NCBI GenBank assembly: GCA_048882505.1 | Contig: JBHLRO010000052.1 | Location: 1-7,675, forward strand | From: Candidatus Thorarchaeota archaeon | GTDB taxonomy: Archaea > Asgardarchaeota > Heimdallarchaeia > Hodarchaeales > Hodarchaeaceae | Length of the DNA stretch: 7,675 bases | Direction: 5' to 3' | In this document: positions 328-7,675 of the stretch, piece after piece | How the letters are laid out: each line of letters opens with the position of its first letter | Position numbering within the stretch: position 1 is the first letter of the stretch | The notes under the pieces: model-generated | The model's input: the letters and a program-made list of their open reading frames with translations, nothing else | What the model was told of the DNA's origin: nothing | The model's database searches: none | Made by a program: the position numbers and the translations under genes

Positions 328-432
328 ATCAGCGAACCTGGGCTTCAGGCATATATAATCACTATGGAGCCGAGATCAAAGGTGAAAAGGACTTAGGTAT
401 TTTTGGATCCATTTTATCCATACAGCGCTTGA

Positions 433-465
433 AAACGAGTAGCCCAATCGTCAGATAGGATTAGG
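433..465 (+). repeat. Directional intergenic repeat, copy A (core CCAATCGTCAGA at 444-455)
   Basis: Ungapped match of 28/33 nt to copy D (7409-7441). Confidence 0.85.
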
Positions 466-521
466 TTAGGAAGGAAATTAGAATCTAAGGATGTTTTGTG
501 TGGTGGATTCGACAGTATCGT

Positions 522-529
522 TTTATAAA
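522..529 (+). promoter_or_regulatory. Putative archaeal TATA box for the 560..1870 gene
   Basis: TTTATAAA ends 30 nt upstream of ATG 560, the spacing expected for a short-leader archaeal transcript. No clear BRE. Confidence 0.45.
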
Positions 530-559
530 GACTCTGGCAATGGGATCTAATGAGGCCCA

Positions 560-1870
560 ATGTTATTCAAAAAAACTCATAGAAGGAACTACAAAAGGAT
601 TTTCAACTTTTTATTGGAACTCACACTCCTTTTGAATGTTATGATTCCTTTCCATTATGTCGCAGCCCCGATTAATGACGGGAACTCGGAAATCCAGCTG
701 GAGGCAGGAATTGATGAGGGGTTTTTGAATATTACAAGTCAAACCGCGTACAGATACGTTTGGATTAATGTCAAAGGGACTCAGATTTTATTTTTAGCGA
801 TGATTGCGTTTGACGGGCCTTCCCCTGTTCAGGTATTGATCACCGAACATTATTATTCTCAAAACAACAGTATCGAGATTTTCATGGGGAATCAGCTCAA
901 TTATATCGAATTATACCACGATAATGTCACTAAAGATGGGATTCCTACCGGTAATTATTCCAGTAGTGGTAGGCATGACGAAATATCACATTATTTGATT
1001 TTCAACGCTTCCCGATCAATTCAAATCTTTGATGTACAAAAAACCGAGAGTGCTAACGGGTTTACCTATGCGTGGGGTCTTCGTTACACCGATCTTCACG
1101 CGTTACTAGTAAAATCAGCATCCCAACCGATTCAAGAGATTTTCGACATAAATGTCTCATATGTCCAGTTTGATTACAAGTACGAGATCGATTTAAATCA
1201 GAATCAGACCATTTTAAAGTCGTCGTTTCAATTGGGTACTTTTCAAGGGCCTGATGGTTTGTTTTTCGACAACACCAGTCTTTCGCTGCTTTATTCATCA
1301 TTTAGTCATGTTTCAAATGTGTCTTCGGTTTACATTAATGGGAGTAGGTTATTCACATCCCAGAATACGAACCAATCATTTGTGATGGAGGACGTAGCCC
1401 AAGAAGTAAATCAGCAAGAAGTTTGGATTAATCGATTTAAAAGCAATTACACAGTTATTAAGCCGAATCTCACGAAAAGTTATCCCACGGTGACGGCATC
1501 TGCACCCATGGCCACTATTGATCTCAATATGCGCAGCTCGGGGTATTTAGGTGTTATGCAGCTATCGGATTACTTAGCTTCCCTTTTTCCCCCCTTGTTT
1601 ACAGAATTAAAATCGATTGCCTTGGACGAAATTTTTTCTCTCGAAAAGAGCCTAGTTCGCTATAGAATCTGTTACCCCGAATGGGGTGGTCATGAACTTA
1701 CCCATGATCCTTGGTTAATTGCACAGATTACGCCCAAGGACGCATTATTGCCGAGACCACCTAGTGATAACCTTCAAATAGCCATCATAGGTCTTTTTAT
1801 TATGGGTTTGATTTCCCTAAGTGTTGCAATCGTAAGATGGAAGGATTTAATAGAAAAACAAAGGTTTTAA
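560..1870 (+). CDS. Cell-surface glycoprotein with N-terminal signal/anchor and C-terminal TM anchor
   Basis: 436 aa. Basic N-terminus followed by a hydrophobic segment, a beta-rich body, 13 N-X-S/T sequons counted by hand, and a C-terminal TM (IAIIGLFIMGLISLSVAIV) followed by RWK. Confidence 0.8.
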   Translation: MLFKKTHRRNYKRIFNFLLELTLLLNVMIPFHYVAAPINDGNSEIQLEAGIDEGFLNITSQTAYRYVWINVKGTQILFLAMIAFDGPSPVQVLITEHYYSQNNSIEIFMGNQLNYIELYHDNVTKDGIPTGNYSSSGRHDEISHYLIFNASRSIQIFDVQKTESANGFTYAWGLRYTDLHALLVKSASQPIQEIFDINVSYVQFDYKYEIDLNQNQTILKSSFQLGTFQGPDGLFFDNTSLSLLYSSFSHVSNVSSVYINGSRLFTSQNTNQSFVMEDVAQEVNQQEVWINRFKSNYTVIKPNLTKSYPTVTASAPMATIDLNMRSSGYLGVMQLSDYLASLFPPLFTELKSIALDEIFSLEKSLVRYRICYPEWGGHELTHDPWLIAQITPKDALLPRPPSDNLQIAIIGLFIMGLISLSVAIVRWKDLIEKQRF

Positions 1871-1949
1871 GCATGATAAAAATTCCATTTACTGAATCGA
1901 TATCCAGTTGGAACAAAGAAAGCACTGCTTAAGTTGAAACTAGGTCGGT

Positions 1950-3611
1950 TTGTGTCACCCCTTGGAAAACGTGGATCGTTCTTCTTACTCGGGTCAAACT
2001 TCTGACCAACAGCTGGATCTACACGGATCAACTCTCCAAGTCTATTGGTACATATTAACCCAGCGAAAAGCTGCCTTTTTTTATCAAGATATTCAAAAAG
2101 TTATGGGATTTTCCAGTAAAAGCTCCGCCATTTATCAATTAGAGAAGCTATGTGAACTTGAGGTTCTTCAAAAAACAGGAAATGGATATGTAATCGTGTC
2201 CAGGCCCAAACCGCGGGCTCTTCAGTCATATTTCTTTATAAATTTTATACTAATACCCAAAGCTTTCATATATGGTGTTATGCTTTCAATAATCAATTTT
2301 TCAGTTTTTCTGCTGTCCCTAAATGGTTTAGATTTTCTTACTATTCTTTTGGCCAGTATTCCAAATATGGGGGCCATAATGCTGTTTTTTAGTGAAGCGA
2401 TACTTGTTTGGAAGAATCGGCCTAAACCACCTCACACAAAAAGCATATTACAGAGTCTTAGTATGAATTTTAAAAAAAGGAATAACAGCTCTAGATCAGC
2501 AAAAAAAAATCAAGTAAAAAAATCGAGCATGACCAAAACCACGACATTCACCCGATTTCTATCACAGAGAATCCCGATATCACGAACCACAAAGCGATTT
2601 CTTCTTGCTATGGTGATAATCCTTTTCCTAACTGGCCAAATTGTCCTGATTGGAACTTTGACAGGTTTTTTTGAGGGAAGATTTACAGCCCGAATAACCA
2701 CAAATACCCAAATTGAATTCCCTGACCCCTTGCCTATTCAATTACGCCCGACTGGATATGACATACAAGGATCGTCTTTATACGCCCTCGGACACTTTAC
2801 AAATGGAACAACTGGAAGATTTTTATTTCATTTTGAGTTTAATAGTGATTTAACTACTTTGGAGGCTTTTTACAGCTATAAATTCCCCTCTCACCTTCCA
2901 ATTATGGGGATCGGTCTTGCTTTTTACAATGCTTCCTATTGGGCGCTGGCAGAGGTGGAAAATCAAACCATGCCTCAACCACTCTATTGTTTCACAAAGG
3001 ACATGTCTTCCATTCAGAATTATTCCCTTGGGGTTCCCCCGATAGTACATAATATGAATTTAAGGTTCAGTAGAAGAGATATTGTGATTTGGAATGGTTC
3101 GCTGTGGATCTTAGAGTGGTGGTTAAAACCTGGCGATGACCGATTCCGTAGTAATGTAAGCATTTACTCGATGAAAAATTTTGCACGCGTGAAAACGTTT
3201 TTTGTCCCGATTAAGGCGGAGGAATTTTCCTTTGATTCCCAGGGACAGCTGTGGCTCTGTGAATTTGATCATTATCCGGAGACTTACGCTGCTTTCATGG
3301 CTATAGCGCCTGATGACGGCACCATATTGCGCTCGATTCGACCTCTTACATTCCCTTCTTTTTTTCCATTAAATCATGATAGAGATTCCTTTTTTTCTTA
3401 TTATCCCATTCTATTTAATGATTCTTTTTTGGTACCAATTGCAGACGACCTTATAACCGAGTTATGGGGTTTTCAAATCATTTCTTATGAATTGGACCCC
3501 TCATCAAGGATTACTGATTTCTTGGGGCTGCTTCTTATCACCGTTGGTCTTGAGGGAGGGGGACTTACCTTCTTATGGTATGTTTCTTCGAAACGAAAAA
3601 GATTGAAATGA
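1950..3611 (+). CDS. Membrane-bound winged-helix transcription regulator fused to a large extracellular, probably beta-propeller-like domain
   Basis: 553 aa from TTG; the true start may be a few codons later. N-terminal wHTH-like segment (LHGSTLQVYWYIL...DIQKVMGFSSKSSAIYQLEKLCELEVLQKTGNGYVI), two TM helices, a K/R-rich linker, a third TM, a repeat-like beta-rich domain with NGT/NAS/NQT/NYS/NGS/NVS/NDS sequons, a C-terminal TM and a basic tail. Confidence 0.75.
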   Translation: MCHPLENVDRSSYSGQTSDQQLDLHGSTLQVYWYILTQRKAAFFYQDIQKVMGFSSKSSAIYQLEKLCELEVLQKTGNGYVIVSRPKPRALQSYFFINFILIPKAFIYGVMLSIINFSVFLLSLNGLDFLTILLASIPNMGAIMLFFSEAILVWKNRPKPPHTKSILQSLSMNFKKRNNSSRSAKKNQVKKSSMTKTTTFTRFLSQRIPISRTTKRFLLAMVIILFLTGQIVLIGTLTGFFEGRFTARITTNTQIEFPDPLPIQLRPTGYDIQGSSLYALGHFTNGTTGRFLFHFEFNSDLTTLEAFYSYKFPSHLPIMGIGLAFYNASYWALAEVENQTMPQPLYCFTKDMSSIQNYSLGVPPIVHNMNLRFSRRDIVIWNGSLWILEWWLKPGDDRFRSNVSIYSMKNFARVKTFFVPIKAEEFSFDSQGQLWLCEFDHYPETYAAFMAIAPDDGTILRSIRPLTFPSFFPLNHDRDSFFSYYPILFNDSFLVPIADDLITELWGFQIISYELDPSSRITDFLGLLLITVGLEGGGLTFLWYVSSKRKRLK

Positions 3612-3689
3612 ATTTGCGTTAATCAGCATTCTTTTCGGATTTTTAATGTTCTGGACGCTTCATCAATTCAACAAGCCCGTTTTCCTCTC

Positions 3690-3917
3690 CATTATCAATT
3701 GAAAGGATATCTTTTGCGTTAGAACGAGGTAGGTGGAATTGGATTCATCTTGATGCAAAAAACGGTATATGTGTAATTTTGGGGGCTGATCACGCAACCT
3801 GCGTATCGGGAGCGAATGCGCAGGAAACTCGAACTCTATCAGCAGTTCCAGATTAATCTGGTCTCACTCTATCACGGCGATTTAGACAAGATGGACAAGA
3901 TTTTCCAAACAAGGTAG
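3690..3917 (+). pseudogene. Degraded PD-(D/E)XK/Vsr-like nuclease-domain gene fragment
   Basis: One frame reads FILMQKTVYV*FWGLITQPAYRERMRRKLELYQQFQINLVSLYHGDLDKMDKIFQTR*. This resembles the D-F-x-L...Y(I/V)E(F/Y)WG...Y..R...K..LY motif, with TAA (3774-3776) in place of the Glu codon. The preceding 'ELD' needs a 1-nt frameshift near 3745. The 5' boundary is uncertain. Confidence 0.55.
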
Positions 3918-4188
3918 AACCGGTAAATAGAAAGGAACTATCCTTCCGTGAAATATAAGAGGATAAAAGAAGAGTTGTGGAAAATCAGAGGGCTACAAGA
4001 TAAACGGAGCGGGGTGGTGCCCGTTAAGAGGTTTTGGCTTGCCTAGAAAAGTTATCTACGGGTCGGTACACGTGTTCTCTCTACTTTTTGGGTTACAAAC
4101 TCATTCAACGAGAACAGACTTTTAAATCGTATCTTTCAGGAGACTGTCAATTTGCCACGATTGATGGAATGAGTGAGATGAGGGATTA

Positions 4189-4923
4189 ATGGTTAGCTTT
4201 GATGTGGATATATATTCGGAAGAAGCGACAATCGTCTTCTGGGGATTTATCGGTGTTGGCCTAGTTCTTTTTTTTCTCGGTGTTTTCGCTCCAATCCTCT
4301 TGTTCATTGGTCTTCCTCTATTGCTAAGCGGGTTATGGAATCTGCTGCGGTTGGAATCGGAAAGAAGCAAGATCGTCAATAAATATGCGCTCCAAGCACC
4401 TGGACAGAAAAAGGCGAAAACGCCGAGGTTTACACGAGACTTACAGAAAGGACTGAAAGAATACGAAGAGGAAAACTATGCTACGGCAGCAAGGATCCTC
4501 ACACGGGTTATCGAAAATCCAAACACACCAATGAAACACAAAATGATTGCAAATTCGTTGGTGGCCCGCTGTCTGGCCCAAAGAGAGAAGTGGGCGGCTG
4601 CCCGCCTAGCCTCTGATGATTTTTTTAAAACCGCTCTCCTTCTCGGCATAAATCCGCCATATTTGGACTATATAGCGAGGGTTACTATTTATCTGAACCT
4701 TGGAATAGTTAAAGAAGCCTATTCTACGTTGCAGATCGCGATCAATTACCATGGAGCCAAAAGGGAATTACGTAGATTACAGCAAATCCTGATACCGTTA
4801 ATATCGGATGCAGCTGGAGACTTACCGATGGTTTGTCCTAAATGTGGAACGCAATATGAAAAGGGGAAGGTACCTACGTTCTGTTTTGTATGCAATCAAC
4901 TATTTCTGCAGGAACAAATGTGA
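4189..4923 (+). CDS. Membrane protein with 2 TM helices, TPR-like helical repeats and a C-terminal zinc ribbon
   Basis: 244 aa. Hydrophobic hairpin at the N-terminus, TPR-like helices (GLKEYEEENYATAARIL; YLNLGIVKEAYSTLQIAI) and CPKCG...CFVC at the C-terminus. Confidence 0.8.
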   Translation: MVSFDVDIYSEEATIVFWGFIGVGLVLFFLGVFAPILLFIGLPLLLSGLWNLLRLESERSKIVNKYALQAPGQKKAKTPRFTRDLQKGLKEYEEENYATAARILTRVIENPNTPMKHKMIANSLVARCLAQREKWAAARLASDDFFKTALLLGINPPYLDYIARVTIYLNLGIVKEAYSTLQIAINYHGAKRELRRLQQILIPLISDAAGDLPMVCPKCGTQYEKGKVPTFCFVCNQLFLQEQM

Positions 4924-4991
4924 TTGGGCGTTTACGAAGTATGGATTAATGTGCCGAGAGGTATTATAAGGGAGTTACCCCAACTCACATA

Positions 4992-5026
4992 GAAACGAGC
5001 GATCCAAAGGTCAGGTGGTATGAGGA
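4992..5026 (+). repeat. Directional intergenic repeat, degenerate copy E
   Basis: GAAACGAGCGATCCAAAGGTCAGGTGGTATGAGGA aligns ungapped at 26/35 with copy D (7408-7442) and sits at the equivalent position before the duplicated gene. Confidence 0.7.
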
Positions 5027-5049
5027 GAATAAAAAGCAATCGAAGGTGT

Positions 5050-5256
5050 GTGGGAAAAGGGAGCGATCTGGTGTCTGGTACCGCTGATCTGATTGAGGGT
5101 AAGAGTGAAGTAAGGTGGGATTAAATTGGCTGTTCAAAAAGAAAATTTGAGGAGGTGGGATTTCAAAGCCATCCTGGGGGTAGGCCTGACTATGGGAGCA
5201 TTTGTGATCCTTGTACTCCCAACACAGGGAGTGGGCAGGTTCGACCTGTTAGGATT
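5050..5256 (+). repeat. Long direct repeat, copy 1 (leader plus 5' part of the zinc-finger gene)
   Basis: 207 bp ungapped alignment to 7469-7675 (offset 2419) with 13 mismatches, about 94% identity. Confidence 0.95.
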
Positions 5257-5464
5257 TCTCATTCGTGCCGGAATCGGCTTGGTTACGCTGATCCTAGGGA
5301 ACTATTTACTCATCACACATGCGCCCTTCCTGCGTGTGGAACAAGGATGGTGGAAACCAGCAGAAATCTGGATCTGTCGGAAATGTGGATTTGGGAACAA
5401 AAGAACCAGAACCCATTGTGTCAAGTGTGGCGTGGAATTTCAAGCTGTCAATCGTAAGAGGTAA
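5126..5464 (+). CDS. Small 2-TM membrane protein with a C-terminal RanBP2-type zinc finger
   Basis: TTG start preceded by SD-like AAGGTGG. Two hydrophobic segments. WICRKCGFGNKRTRTHCVKC exactly matches W-x-C-x2-C-x3-N-x6-C-x2-C. Four of 7 coding differences versus the second copy are synonymous in this frame. Confidence 0.85.
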   Translation: MAVQKENLRRWDFKAILGVGLTMGAFVILVLPTQGVGRFDLLGFLIRAGIGLVTLILGNYLLITHAPFLRVEQGWWKPAEIWICRKCGFGNKRTRTHCVKCGVEFQAVNRKR

Positions 5465-5478
5465 TAAAGATAAAACAG

Positions 5479-5520
5479 CCGTGTCGAGAGGAGCAATCCA
5501 ATCGTCAGATAGTGTTAGGA
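5479..5520 (+). repeat. Directional intergenic repeat, copy B (core at 5498-5509)
   Basis: 29/30 identical to 7413-7442, and 37/42 identical over 5479-5520 versus 7401-7442. Confidence 0.9.
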
Positions 5521-5632
5521 GGTAAAAAAAGAATAGCAAAGGATGGATAGAGCGGAAAGAAGAAGATAAAAACCAAAACTTTTGTTATAATTGTGAAGCA
5601 AACGGGGAATTTAAGGAGGAAAGTGACAGAAT

Positions 5633-6121
5633 ATGCACACAATCAGCGAACCTGTTTTTAAAAAAGAAAAAGAACTCGAAAAAACAATCGGCAAAGCAAT
5701 CACATTCATCTTATCCCAAAACGCAAATATTGTTGACTTTTTTGCTTTTCATGGAAGATTCGATTTGTGCGTGCTCATTCATAATAACAGAAAAGTTACA
5801 TATACCAGATTTATCGAAGTTAAGCATTTTTCAAGGGCAAATTCGCGAATAGGGCTAAATGGTGCTCAAGTAGATTTACTCATTCACAATTCCGAAGATC
5901 TACTGTGGTTAAATAAGCATATCACATGGATTTTTGGAGACAGTACCAAAGCTAAAGGAAGTAACCGCTTTCAAATGCTGAATAACGTCCAGGCAAAAGG
6001 TTGTGTGTATAATAAAGTCAGGAGAGGAAAACAGAATAATTTTTCTTTAAAAAAAGTTATGGAGGCTCCTTTATTTTGGAATGAGCTCCTGAAAGAATTG
6101 AACAGATTCCTTGTCGAATAG
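5633..6121 (+). CDS. Stand-alone PD-(D/E)XK superfamily nuclease-like protein
   Basis: 162 aa with an N-terminal helix Glu (EKELEK), strand Asp (RFDLCV) and E-x-K (FIEVK) in canonical order. AGGAGG lies upstream at 5614-5619. Confidence 0.65.
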   Translation: MHTISEPVFKKEKELEKTIGKAITFILSQNANIVDFFAFHGRFDLCVLIHNNRKVTYTRFIEVKHFSRANSRIGLNGAQVDLLIHNSEDLLWLNKHITWIFGDSTKAKGSNRFQMLNNVQAKGCVYNKVRRGKQNNFSLKKVMEAPLFWNELLKELNRFLVE

Positions 6122-6122
6122 G

Positions 6123-6129
6123 TTTTTTT
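6123..6129 (+). terminator. Putative archaeal oligo(T) terminator
   Basis: T7 tract 2 nt after the nuclease stop codon. Confidence 0.4.
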
Positions 6130-6332
6130 CCATAAAGTATCTTGATAATCCTTAGCTATTATCTTCGAATCTTCCCCGATATAGGATTTCTTACGATCGA
6201 TTATCAGTATACGTAACTATTGCTGTGAGAAGATAGGGCAATAAACGACAACTGCACCTTCTTTTTTATGATATTTCCTATAATTTCATGATTTTACAAA
6301 ATAATTTAAGAAAACCATGCGAGTACCTTTAT

Positions 6333-6347
6333 AGTCCAATCGTCAGA
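6333..6347 (+). repeat. Directional intergenic repeat, short copy C
   Basis: AGTCCAATCGTCAGA is 15/15 identical to 7417-7431. The flanks diverge on both sides. Confidence 0.8.
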
Positions 6348-6405
6348 ATGATACTGAATCGACCCTATCAATACACATAAATACATGGATAGTATAACAG
6401 CAACC

Positions 6406-6630
6406 ATGGCACATAAAACGATCACCATTTCTGAAGAGGCTTATAATCTCTTAAAAGCGAATAAAAGGGAAAATGAATCCTTTACCGAAGTTATTAAGAG
6501 AATTCTAACTCAGAAAAGGAAAAAAGAAGAGTTAATTGAATGGCTATCGAGTAAAGAAGATTTATCAGACCTAGCTGATTCCGTGGAATCAGTATTTGAT
6601 GAAAGAAAGGAGATAAATCTCAGAATTTAG
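6406..6630 (+). CDS. vapB: VapB-type antitoxin (DUF217/PF02697-like archaeal family)
   Basis: MAHKTITISEEAYNLLKANKRENESFTEVIKRIL fits the KTITIS.EAY..L...K...ESFS.VI.RL family pattern and lies directly upstream of a PIN gene. ATG 6406 is preferred over the track start at 6385. Confidence 0.85.
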   Translation: MAHKTITISEEAYNLLKANKRENESFTEVIKRILTQKRKKEELIEWLSSKEDLSDLADSVESVFDERKEINLRI

Positions 6631-6646
6631 ATTTCAGGTGGCAGCT

Positions 6647-7033
6647 ATGATTTTTGATACGGATTACCTCATAGAAATTCTAAGAAATGACAAGGAAACA
6701 ATGAAACATCTAAAAGGGTTACTCAAACAGCCTAATGAATTATTTATAACACACGTAACGCTCTGGGAGTTATATCAAGGTGTGTATAAATCTTCAAGAA
6801 TAGAATATAATCTAAGGCAAACAGAAGAACTCATACAATTTTTCACAATAATCCCATTTAATCAAGCAATTGCTAGAAGATTTGGCTTTTTGATGAATGA
6901 GCTTAGAAACAAAGGAACTCCAATCGGTGTCATGGATACGTTAATAGCAAGCATTGCATTGGAGGAAGATCTCCCTCTAGTCACGAAAAATCGGTCCCAC
7001 TTCGAGAAAGCGGGTATTAGAATAGCTGAGTAA
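6647..7033 (+). CDS. vapC: VapC PIN-domain ribonuclease toxin
   Basis: PIN acidic motifs IFDTD, TLWEL, MDTLIA and LVTKNRSHF. SD-like AGGTG at 6636-6640 favours ATG 6647 over GTG 6638. Confidence 0.92.
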   Translation: MIFDTDYLIEILRNDKETMKHLKGLLKQPNELFITHVTLWELYQGVYKSSRIEYNLRQTEELIQFFTIIPFNQAIARRFGFLMNELRNKGTPIGVMDTLIASIALEEDLPLVTKNRSHFEKAGIRIAE

Positions 7034-7079
7034 AATATCAAATCGCAGTCGGTTTAATGTTTCTTAAGTCAAGAAAGAC

Positions 7080-7404
7080 GTGTTGGATCTTTGAAAGGAA
7101 GGTGCCCTCAGTACGAGAGGAACGGGGTGTCGGCGCCTCTACTCTACCGGTTGTCCGGGTGGGCATTGCCGGGCAGGCACGCGCCACGGGATAAGCGCTG
7201 AAAGCATCTAAGCACGAACCCCACCTTGAAAAGAAAGATCCACTCTGCTTGTATCTGGAAAGACACAGGGGCTGGTGACGGCAACTGTGGGCAAGTAGAC
7301 GAGCGCTGGGGTAGAAGACCCCGTTGATAGAACGGCAGCGTACGCGTGGAGGCTTCGGCCGACATGTTTAACTGGCCGTCCCTAATCGCGCAAGGGCTGA
7401 CCGC
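7080..7404 (+). rRNA. 23S rRNA 3'-terminal segment only (domain VI, about E. coli 2625-2900), with no upstream 23S sequence in the window
   Basis: Sarcin-ricin loop AGTACGAGAGGAAC at 7110-7123, H97 GATAAGCGCTGAAAGCATCTAAGC at 7190-7213, H94 GGATCTTT (7085-7092) pairing with AAAGATCC (7234-7241), H100 GGGGTAGAAGACCCC, GTTGATAG, a cUUCGg hairpin, and CTAATCGCGCAAGGGCTGACC resembling a 23S 3' end. The ends are approximate. Confidence 0.93.
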
Positions 7405-7442
7405 GTTGAAATGAGCAGTCCAATCGTCAGATAGTGTTAGGA
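7401..7442 (+). repeat. Directional intergenic repeat, copy D (core at 7420-7431), abutting the 23S 3' end
   Basis: Reference copy for the alignments with A, B, C and E. Confidence 0.9.
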
Positions 7443-7468
7443 TGGAAAAGAATGGTAAAAAGGAAAGC

Positions 7469-7675
7469 GTGGGAAAAAGGAGCGGTCTGATGTCTGGGAT
7501 CGCTGATCTGATTGAGGATAAGAGTGAAGTAAGGTGGGATTAAATTGGATGTTGAAAAAGAAAATTTGAGGAGGTGGGATTTCAAAGCAATCCTGGGTGT
7601 AGGTCTGACTATGGGAGCATTTGTGATCCTTGTACTCCCAACACATGGAGTGGGCAGGTTCGACCTATTAGGATT
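7469..7675 (+). repeat. Long direct repeat, copy 2 (runs to the window end)
   Basis: About 94% identical to 5050-5256. Confidence 0.95.
7545..7675 (+). CDS. 3'-truncated paralog of the 5126..5464 TM/RanBP2-type zinc-finger gene
   Basis: TTG at 7545 gives MDVEKENLRRWDFKAILGVGLTMGAFVILVLPTHGVGRFDLLG..., open to the window edge. It is absent from the ORF track because it has no stop codon in the window. Confidence 0.85.
   Translation, partial: MDVEKENLRRWDFKAILGVGLTMGAFVILVLPTHGVGRFDLLG

Follow-up and report, generated by a model that had tools for sequence, protein, structure and literature searches.

Copies of a 23S pre-rRNA processing-stem strand punctuate an accessory-gene array in Hodarchaeota

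The window analyzed here, a stretch of 7,675 nt from a Hodarchaeota (Heimdall-group Asgard) metagenome-assembled genome (MAG; G000), carries co-oriented genes and a piece of 23S rRNA separated by copies of a repeat, which we call the tail repeat. Its features, with H1 and H2 denoting strands of the stem helices discussed below, are:

433..520, + strand: tail-repeat copy 1, with core at 444-455, H1-strand TAGGATTAGG at 456-465 and a degenerate block 2 at 505-520
560..4923, + strand: cassette 1 cargo, three ORFs at 560-1870 (436 aa), 1950-3611 (553 aa) and 4189-4923 (244 aa)
4992..5077, + strand: degenerate tail-repeat copy, with block 1 CCAAAGGTCAGG at 5004-5015 and block 2 GATCTGGTGTCTG at 5065-5077
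5126..5464, + strand: small RanBP-type zinc ribbon protein (Pfam PF00641, E 2.8e-6)
5486..5520, + strand: block-1-only tail-repeat copy, with core at 5498-5509 and H1-strand at 5510-5520, without block 2
5633..6121, + strand: 162-aa ORF of no known family
6332..6347, + strand: left-half copy, TAGTCCAATCGTCAGA alone, with similarity ending directly after the AGA bulge position
6385..7033, + strand: toxin-antitoxin pair, vapB (6385-6630) and vapC/PIN (6638-7033) (PF02697, 8.6e-14; PF01850, 8.2e-15)
7079..7405, + strand: spare 23S rRNA domain VI through the 3' end (Rfam RF02540, model 2721-2973 of 2987, 222.8 bits)
7406..7496, + strand: full tail-repeat copy, the 3' strand of the 23S processing stem, with H2-strand at 7413-7421, central helix (T)CGTC at 7424-7428, AGA bulge at 7429-7431, H1-strand at 7432-7443 and block 2 at 7484-7496
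7545..7675, + strand: second zinc-ribbon paralog, start only, truncated by the contig end, with ribosome-binding site GGTGGGATT at 7533-7541

The 12-mer CCAATCGTCAGA matches exactly at 444, 5498, 6336 and 7420, with a degenerate copy at 5004. All five copies lie between genes on the plus strand, and a rescan thus bore out the preliminary description of this DNA, as did the recomputed distances from core to next start codon: 116 (444 to 560), 122 (5004 to 5126), 135 (5498 to 5633) and 125 nt (7420 to 7545). When up to two mismatches were allowed, there were 7 matches versus 0.51 expected, and none of 200 shuffles gave 7 or more. The repeat is longer than the ~35 bp first assigned to it. A 52-nt family is recognizable at 425-476, 4985-5036 (65%, degenerate), 5479-5530 and 7401-7452, and a second conserved block (block 2; GGTCTGATGTCTG at 7484-7496, with a variant at 5065-5077) trails block 1 by ~53 nt; the entire unit measures ~95 nt and reaches ~130 nt in relatives, and tail copies span ~95-170 nt. 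In an alignment of the copies, CGTCAGA and block 2 are the best-conserved parts.

The genes between the copies are of mixed character. No Pfam family was matched at threshold by the ORFs of cassette 1, and the 244-aa ORF had only a sub-threshold HemY_N match. The zinc-ribbon protein, whose PF00641 score (26.9 bits) is marginally below the curated cut-off of 27, belongs by family clustering to a five-member paralog family on the G000 array contigs; the sequence from 7469 to 7675, which includes the start of the second paralog, is 94% identical to 5050-5256. The 162-aa ORF, originally called a nuclease gene, has no Pfam match at E ≤ 0.01. The vapBC pair also occurs in two related genomes (G012:C54, 85%; G004:C230, 72%), there without motif or rRNA piece.

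The spare domain VI retains an intact sarcin-ricin loop (7110-7123), and its 5' edge is a fixed joint, CGTGTTGGATCT, which is also found with unrelated upstream DNA in C45, G007 (two copies compared) and G002. Of 21 other genomes belonging to the genus, 12 have spare copies of domain VI. The fragment had been counted as cassette cargo, but it runs continuously into the motif; since the motif begins at the 23S 3' end, the piece is not cargo. Two other roles for it were rejected. It is not a decoy that mimics the VapC target through its sarcin-ricin loop, because the vapBC orthologs in G012 and G004 lack the rRNA piece and motif and because other domain VI copies follow unrelated genes. Nor does it reflect a split or intron-bearing 23S at the domain V/VI boundary, because the 23S is contiguous across that point in G004:C44 and G007:C8 and because one spare copy has a mutated sarcin-ricin loop. 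A C/D-box sRNA or other known RNA family was considered and rejected: Rfam at E ≤ 1 gave only the LSU fragment and a sub-threshold hammerhead match.

The repeat unit, whose identity the preliminary description had left unrecognized, is one strand, the 3' one, of the 23S pre-rRNA processing stem and begins at the 23S 3' end. The 23S fragment in the window ends where the motif starts, and the unit directly follows the native 23S in both G004:C44 (model 1423-2973, then unit) and G007:C8 (model 2545-2987, then unit). An array adjoining native 23S is assembled in these two genomes and not in G000. A complete 23S in the G000 bin (C57) differs in sequence.

The unit pairs over ~95 nt with the sequence flanking the 23S gene at its 5' end on G000:C38 (at about 2100-2130), and over longer flanks the duplex reaches -117.6 kcal/mol. 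This 5' strand is single-copy, and no further copies of it were found elsewhere. In the predicted cofold, helices of 12, 5 and 9 bp follow one another, the first two separated by the 3-nt AGA bulge and the last two by an internal loop, and the H1 helix co-varies between genomes (TCCTAATACTA with TAGTGTTAGGA in G000, TCCTTAAGCTA with TGGCTTAAGGA in G007). The full copy at 7406..7496 cofolds with the C38 flank at -84.1 kcal/mol (z -8.2). Duplexes with the 23S 5' flank were also predicted for the degenerate copy at 4992..5077 (-72.4 kcal/mol, z -5.9), copy 1 (-50.1 kcal/mol, z -3.1) and the block-1-only copy (-48.0 kcal/mol, z -4.0); the half copy at 6332..6347 paired no better than shuffles (z -1.5). 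Overall, pairing with the 5' flank is far stronger than in shuffles for 17 of 29 copies (z ≤ -5).

Within this stem, the 12-mer contains both the CGTC central helix and the 3-nt AGA bulge of a bulge-helix-bulge (BHB)-like site; the AGA lies at 453-455 in copy 1 and at 5507-5509 in the block-1-only copy. On the 5' side, G000 shows a 4x2 internal loop and G007 a bulge of 2-3 nt by hand pairing; with its predicted 3' AGA bulge and 4-5-bp helix and a looped 5' side in G000, the motif is therefore bulge-helix-loop-like. Archaeal pre-rRNA stems containing a BHB are cut by the splicing endonuclease EndA, yielding circular pre-23S. From the predicted fold, the CGTC helix and AGA bulge are expected to form the 3' half-site where the splicing endonuclease would cut. 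The unit resembles the archaeal 23S BHB stem in its position directly 3' of 23S, its ~95-nt pairing with the 5' flank and its predicted 4-5-bp central helix beside a 3-nt bulge. It differs in that one 5' strand faces ~25 copies of the 3' strand, the copies extend over tens of kb between unrelated genes, and the 5' side in G000 is an internal loop rather than a clean 3-nt bulge. Processing stems and circular 23S RNA have been reported across archaea, Asgard included (PMC12918454, PMC7038931, PMC7714728).

The copies are confined to co-oriented arrays. The G000 genome holds ~25 copies on six small linked contigs plus C20; with up to two mismatches allowed, all 19 copies fall on C20, C45, C47, C48, C52, C59 and C81 (C59 joins C52 through a 77-nt overlap), and a reversed control pattern had no match in this genome. 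Elsewhere in the genus, 11-15 copies, all in one orientation, extend over 33-44 kb: 15 of 15 lie on the same strand along 44 kb of G007:C8 and 11 of 11 along 33 kb of G011:C3, and G010:C12 has 15 block-2 copies within 40 kb, again on a single strand. Metagenome loci with true block-1 copies were co-oriented in every case. The pattern that would have pointed to a general regulatory site, scattering in front of housekeeping genes, was not seen. Rfam scans of loci L007-L012 were blank although another tool found a 23S fragment in L012, and these blanks were set aside. CP070695 was rejected as a closed reference because it is scaffolded, has 100-N gaps next to the clusters and yielded no 23S. Viral or plasmid carriers were also rejected: no motif-bearing contig was found in the IMG/VR viral collection, where the seven pattern matches are attributable to chance because all lack block 1.

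All of the genomes are short-read MAGs, with arrays lying at contig ends or gaps. An artefact of assembly or binning, by which rRNA-like repeats were wrongly joined to unrelated contigs, might be suspected from the small contigs, the fragmented 23S region and the divergent 23S on C57. We consider this very improbable: the same architecture recurs in independent assemblies from different studies and samples, including contigs of 54 kb and 525 kb, and the junctions are spanned by contigs of the source run. Three DNA metagenome runs of a single study, available as contigs, yielded no informative joints.

Array cargo is almost wholly different between species, with a few common cassettes at different places, and includes small GTPases, WD40, Kelch, TPR and surface proteins, transporters and toxin-antitoxin pairs (vapBC in the window, AbiE in G007). 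G007 and G011 have near-identical cassette genes (97.5% protein identity) that occupy different positions in their arrays. The DNA flanking the copies reassorts at the motif. The region from 433 to 3226 is 84% identical to part of G016:C147, with homology that begins at the motif copy at 433 and unrelated DNA upstream. The copy itself is ~64% identical between the two genomes, versus ~95% for the adjacent leader and gene start, and its G016 ortholog has lost CGTC and the H1 strand while retaining leader and gene. Likewise, the zinc-ribbon cassette is common to C52 and C47, and 5035-5520 is 92% identical to C47:5329-5814, homology stopping at the end of block 1. Directly behind 23S in G004, two ~170-nt tail repeats enclose a single cassette of 3.7 kb with three ORFs, among them uncharacterized ones of 227 and 403 aa. 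The preliminary description proposed recombination or insertion sites of an undescribed cassette-accumulating system; comparison among species is in keeping with this and supports it in part, given the co-oriented arrays, the roughly half of intervening genes that point the other way, the variable cargo and the reassorting flanks. No recombinase was linked to the arrays.

We therefore favor, with a probability of roughly 60%, the reading that the motif is the core of the 23S-stem 3' strand and that spare tails mark the junctions of an accessory-gene cassette array grown behind 23S by recombination. Alternatively, the arrays may have formed without mobility, as debris of local rDNA-tail rearrangements (partial duplications, unequal crossing-over or illegitimate insertions) in which paralogs were duplicated together with their leaders. 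The paralog families in the arrays (five zinc-ribbon genes in G000 and a 15-member Ras-like GTPase family spread across G002, G007, G011 and G041), the ragged rather than sharp left edges of the copies and the failure to find a recombinase are all consistent with such an origin. However, duplication alone could not have produced the cargo, most of which is unique and unrelated. The unique cargo between two repeats in G004, the different neighbors of the same cassette in G000 and G016, the displaced near-identical genes of G007 and G011, and the constant 5' joint of long copies in many species despite unrelated upstream DNA also make this explanation unlikely.

If the arrays did grow by recombination, a cassette would exit as a circle through recombination between its two flanking tail repeats, some of which are extended by the whole of domain VI, and would re-enter at a tail repeat in Campbell style. 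Such entry would always leave direct, co-oriented repeats and an rRNA gene that keeps a working tail, and internal copies could later decay as scars, a reading in line with the low identity of copy 433 between G000 and G016 beside a well-conserved leader. The enzyme would act in trans. Among 56 array or flanking proteins scanned, no recombinase was found. PF00589 matched once in G000 (C5:211534-212040) and between one and three times in each of four relatives, never on array contigs: a conserved Xer-type tyrosine recombinase is encoded once in every one of the five genomes, far from the arrays, and G007 and G011 have two more matches each, outside the array contigs. Serine recombinases were absent from four array-bearing genomes, TnpB showed no linkage to the arrays, and neither a circular form nor an empty site was seen. 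A site-specific recombinase working on the 12-23-bp core, for which the lone Xer-type enzyme is the only conserved candidate, and plain homologous recombination between 100-170-nt repeats appear about equally probable.

The arrays share features with several known systems. Like tRNA/tmRNA 3'-end islands, including tandem arrays, they target the 3' end of a structural RNA gene, have direct repeats that are displaced 3' pieces of the target with the intact gene at one end, and combine co-oriented copies with variable cargo that includes toxin-antitoxin pairs. They depart from such islands in targeting 23S rRNA instead of a tRNA and in having no integrase at the island edges. Their units are small, at ~0.5-13 kb with frequently one to three genes each, and their repeats, at ~95-450 nt, are long. 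Vibrio VCRs are near-identical attC repeats of sedentary chromosomal integrons, and such integrons likewise line up small cassettes in long arrays, with a species-specific repeat between cassettes and content that varies between species and includes toxin-antitoxin cassettes. In contrast to integrons, the arrays have no IntI beside them and no attC hairpin, their repeat lies 5' of genes of mixed orientation, and their anchor is an rRNA gene rather than attI. The motif had already been judged not to be attC, and the units indeed fail to fold as single-stranded DNA hairpins (five units, MFE -1.7 to -5.4 kcal/mol, z -0.55 to +1.78); their RNA folds are weak and inconsistent. We found no description of an integron-like layout behind 23S in the literature searched. 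Finally, IMEX, which exploit Xer at dif (e.g., the CTX/TLC arrays of Vibrio), also consist of units without their own recombinase in tandem at one site, and the only tyrosine recombinase of G000 is of the Xer type, conserved across the five genomes searched and at most a candidate for such a role here. Unlike at dif, the 11-6-11 layout is lacking, in agreement with the earlier reading, and the 23-bp core shows only weak dyad symmetry (TCC...GGA) by sequence reading.

The tail copies might instead act at the RNA level, as 5' leaders that pair with the 23S 5' flank or its excised leader and are maintained by selection rather than left as scars, with the splicing endonuclease processing, regulating or trans-splicing cassette mRNAs. 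The 17 strongly pairing copies, the conservation of CGTCAGA and block 2, and the co-oriented gene with a ribosome-binding site ~115-135 nt downstream of most copies would fit such a role. Approximately three quarters of copies precede a co-oriented gene at a fairly constant distance, which fits a leader role as well. On the other hand, about half of the array genes face away (in G007, about half of ORFs are on the strand opposite the copies), some copies precede a convergent gene, and half copies and copies without block 2 exist. Furthermore, H2-strand substitutions keep or break pairing about equally (hand count on the copy alignment), and the G016 ortholog of copy 433 retains its leader and gene without CGTC and the H1 strand. 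We regard an RNA-level role as quite unlikely to account for the copies in general. For those retaining block 2 and a ribosome-binding site, a shared leader, the alternative raised in the preliminary description, may apply.

Returning to recombination at spare tails, a more specific version is possible but doubtful: a dedicated gene-capture system without an integrase, docking on half of the 23S stem and functionally analogous to an integron on an rRNA gene. In its boldest form, the tRNA/rRNA splicing machinery would still recognize the half-sites, and would either cleave cassette transcripts at the AGA bulge or join them to the rRNA leader.

The Hodarchaeales belong to the archaea known to be most closely related to eukaryotes, and little has been established, to our knowledge, about how they acquire accessory genes. 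Here, a hypervariable region of 30-45 kb is physically tied to the only recognizable 23S rRNA gene and punctuated by copies of an RNA-processing signal. The tail repeats account for the failure of rRNA regions and their neighborhoods to assemble in MAGs of this group. Should the repeats be sites of recombination, they would represent a new route by which cassette arrays form with no resident integrase; should they also act as RNA signals, rRNA maturation would be linked to the expression of acquired genes.

The window is one entire 7,675-nt contig, C52, of the MAG G000 (83 contigs, 4.3 Mb). An archaeal 23S rRNA has its 3' end at window positions 7081-7391 (Rfam RF02540, model positions 2721-2973 of 2987, 222.8 bits), and the repeated motif at 7420 starts where this rRNA piece stops. 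Alignment of all genomic copies showed that the full unit is bipartite and longer than the 12-mer CCAATCGTCAGA of the preliminary description. Block 1 reads GAGCAGTCC-AAT-CGTC-AGA-TAG(G/T)(A/G)TTAGGA; a purine-rich spacer of ~40 nt separates it from block 2, GGTCTGATGTCTG (window 7484-7496). Over its whole length the unit is complementary to the flank that lies 5' of the 23S gene (contig C38; duplex energy -117.6 kcal/mol), and cofolding ~100 nt per side gave -84.1 kcal/mol versus ~-39 kcal/mol for shuffles (z -8.2).

Predicted elements of the stem, in pairing order
7432-7443, + strand: 12-bp helix (cofold)
7429-7431, + strand: 3-nt bulge, AGA (cofold)
7424-7428, + strand: 5-bp helix (cofold)
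Between the 5-bp and 9-bp helices: internal loop (cofold)
7413-7421, + strand: 9-bp helix (cofold)
At block 2, farther out: 14-bp helix

This predicted layout matches archaeal rRNA processing stems that contain a bulge-helix-bulge-like site, a type documented across archaea, Asgard lineages included (PMC12918454, PMC7038931, PMC7714728), so that the 12-mer would span one helix end, the central helix and the bulge. The outer helix differs on both strands between G000 and its congener G007, with pairing kept (TCCTAATACTA with TAGTGTTAGGA versus TCCTTAAGCTA with TGGCTTAAGGA). The native position of the unit is directly behind the 23S gene, as two relatives show: in G004 it immediately follows a contiguous 23S (C44, model 1423-2973), and in G007 a 23S within which contig C8 terminates (model 2545-2987). 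The 5' strand of the stem has one copy in the G000 genome, where the native 23S (C38) breaks at model position 2078 and its join to the array contigs is unassembled. The break falls at the identical model position in two independent assemblies (G000:C38:1 and G016:C9:72465), and the stretch 2078-2720 is absent from most genomes of the genus, which points to a repeat, an intron or a polymorphism at this place. The sole complete 23S in the G000 bin (C57:307-3242) differs, sharing 76% identity with the window fragment over 145 nt and lacking a tail motif behind it; it probably belongs to a different organism binned with G000 (contamination 3.7%) or to a very divergent second operon.

Within the window, the four exact occurrences of the 12-mer and the degenerate copy were recovered as reported, as were the distances of 116, 122, 135 and 125 nt from core to next start codon. 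Allowing up to two mismatches, CCAATCGTCAGA has seven matches in the window versus 0.51 expected, a number reached in 0 of 200 shuffles.

Tail-repeat copies in the window
425-476, + strand: 52-nt family member, exact 12-mer at 444
4985-5036: 52-nt family member, degenerate
5479-5530, + strand: 52-nt family member, exact 12-mer at 5498
6336, + strand: exact 12-mer, copy reduced to 16 nt
7401-7452, + strand: 52-nt family member, exact 12-mer at 7420

In the copy alignment, half copies end directly after CGTCAGA and right-only copies begin at CC(A/T)ATCG, so the 12-mer is the segment that all copies share. Positions 6332-6347 and 7416-7431 have 15 nt in common (AGTCCAATCGTCAGA) and enclose vapBC plus a 23S domain VI piece.

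All 19 G000 copies within two mismatches of a 23-nt pattern (reversed control, 0) are confined to contigs C20, C45, C47, C48, C52, C59 and C81, a distribution that rules out a genome-wide regulatory site. A 77-nt overlap joins C59 to C52, and the short motif contigs are thus pieces of one repeat-tangled region. Relatives have their own variant, CCTATCGTCAG(G/A)T(G/A)GCTT(C/A)AGGA, in strictly co-oriented arrays.

Arrays in other genomes of the genus
G007:C8: 15 of 15 copies on one strand, span 44 kb
G011:C3: 11 of 11 copies on one strand, span 33 kb
G011:C46: 6 of 6 copies on one strand, span ~9 kb
G010:C12: 15 block-2 copies on one strand, 40 kb, reaching the contig end

True block-1 copies also occur in eight metagenome loci from unrelated assemblies, co-oriented within every locus, and pattern matches in named records are to Candidatus Hodarchaeota or Heimdallarchaeota MAGs. 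The G000-form pattern had no match in 20 genomes outside the genus (same order and class), which for a species-specific pattern does not imply absence. Every genome used is a short-read MAG; that the array pattern is an assembly artefact is unlikely, since the same is found in independent assemblies and on long contigs. Counted on a crude map of longest-ORF calls, about half of the ORFs within the G007 array are oriented against the repeats, whereas the first gene behind a repeat shares its orientation in roughly three quarters of cases. The G007:C8 units fall into two subtypes, one with the H2-strand (AAGTAGTCC; the motif strand of the 9-bp helix) and one in which its place is taken by an A/T-rich insert (AAGATTTTTCCAAAAA) that would be unable to pair with the 5' flank.

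The segments between repeats show cassette-like behavior. Almost no genes are common to the arrays of different species, and the few that are form single-gene segments at differing array positions, with at most 97.5% protein identity. An ortholog of window 433-3226 in G016:C147 (84%) has unrelated DNA upstream, homology beginning at the tail repeat, and the match between C52:5035-5520 and C47:5329-5814 (92%) stops at the final base of block 1. The simplest case of a single inserted cassette is in G004, where 3.7 kb with three ORFs, flanked by two ~170-nt tail repeats, lies directly behind the 23S. Orthologs of vapBC (window 6385-7033), with 85% nt identity in G012:C54 and 72% in G004:C230, have no repeat alongside; their surroundings are quite different, which argues that the pair moves as its own small module. 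Window 7079-7405 (327 nt), 99% identical to G000:C45:1805-2131, is a free-standing spare domain VI whose sarcin-ricin loop is intact. Five domain VI copies from G000, G007 and G002 share the same starting nucleotides, CGTGTTGGATCT, with unrelated upstream DNA, and this edge recurs across the genus. The loop is mutated in one G007 copy (C8:46360-46671), which shows decay in at least a subset of copies. Of the 21 other genomes of the genus, 12 have domain VI pieces; G007:C8 carries three (the contig-end one part of the native 23S), and G012 has eleven fragments.

Among 56 array proteins scanned from G000, G004, G007, G010 and G011, none was a recombinase or transposase; the cargo included Ras-type GTPases, NosD beta-helix proteins, ABC transporters, WD40, Kelch, FG-GAP and TPR proteins, peptidases, VapBC and AbiE, besides many unknowns. 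One conserved tyrosine recombinase of Xer type, distant from the arrays, was present in all five genomes searched, and G007 and G011 each have two additional PF00589 matches, also off array contigs. Serine recombinases were absent from G000, G002, G010 and G011, and TnpB showed no linkage to arrays and was absent from G011. The commonest cargo of relatives is Ras/Roc-type small GTPase genes (~165-200 aa; G007:C8 and G010:C12 arrays), a family of 15 members over four genomes whose P-loop region looks degenerate in some. A RanBP-type zinc-ribbon small-protein family has at least five copies on array contigs (window 5126-5464 and 7545-7675; C45, C47, C48), every one following a tail repeat with an identical ribosome-binding site, GGTGGGATT. 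No Pfam family matches the 162-aa ORF at 5633-6121, which the preliminary description took for a nuclease; a D...E-x-K-like pattern seen by eye makes a restriction-endonuclease-like fold possible. Within a 553-aa ORF, a weak hammerhead HH9-like Rfam match (window 2342-2425, - strand; E 0.2, 20.7 bits versus a threshold of 52) is most likely due to chance.

The preliminary description had set the motif apart from attC, and this stands: units do not fold as ssDNA (MFE -1.7 to -5.4 kcal/mol, z -0.55 to +1.78) and their RNA folds are weak and inconsistent, which excludes an attC-type site. The spare copies may act at the RNA level: pairing with the 5' flank at z <= -5 persists in 17 of 29 copies, and block 2 and a ribosome-binding site are retained in many. 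However, H2-strand substitutions keep and break pairing about equally (hand count on the copy alignment), some copies face convergent genes, and the 433 copy is ~64% identical between G000 and G016, where CGTC and the outer helix strand are lost, while the neighboring leader and gene start are ~95% identical; all this argues for decay of the internal copies as scars.

Among known systems, tandem islands at tRNA/tmRNA genes, chromosomal integrons with uniform attC sites and Xer-exploiting elements come closest, but their defining enzymes or sites were tested for and not found here, and cassette arrays that have an rRNA processing stem as their anchor were not described in the literature searched. 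A cassette cycle of integration and excision is proposed. Unique cargo between long direct repeats suggests that the inserted DNA already bore a tail copy: a circle carrying such a copy would integrate, Campbell-type, at a tail repeat, and recombination between two flanking repeats would excise it. Recombination might proceed through a site-specific enzyme that works at the core, toward which the fixed domain VI joint and 12-nt minimal core lean, or through homologous recombination between repeats, toward which the long repeats, ragged left edges and missing recombinase lean. Such a cycle would yield co-orientation and growth from the 23S end, and would preserve a working rRNA tail.
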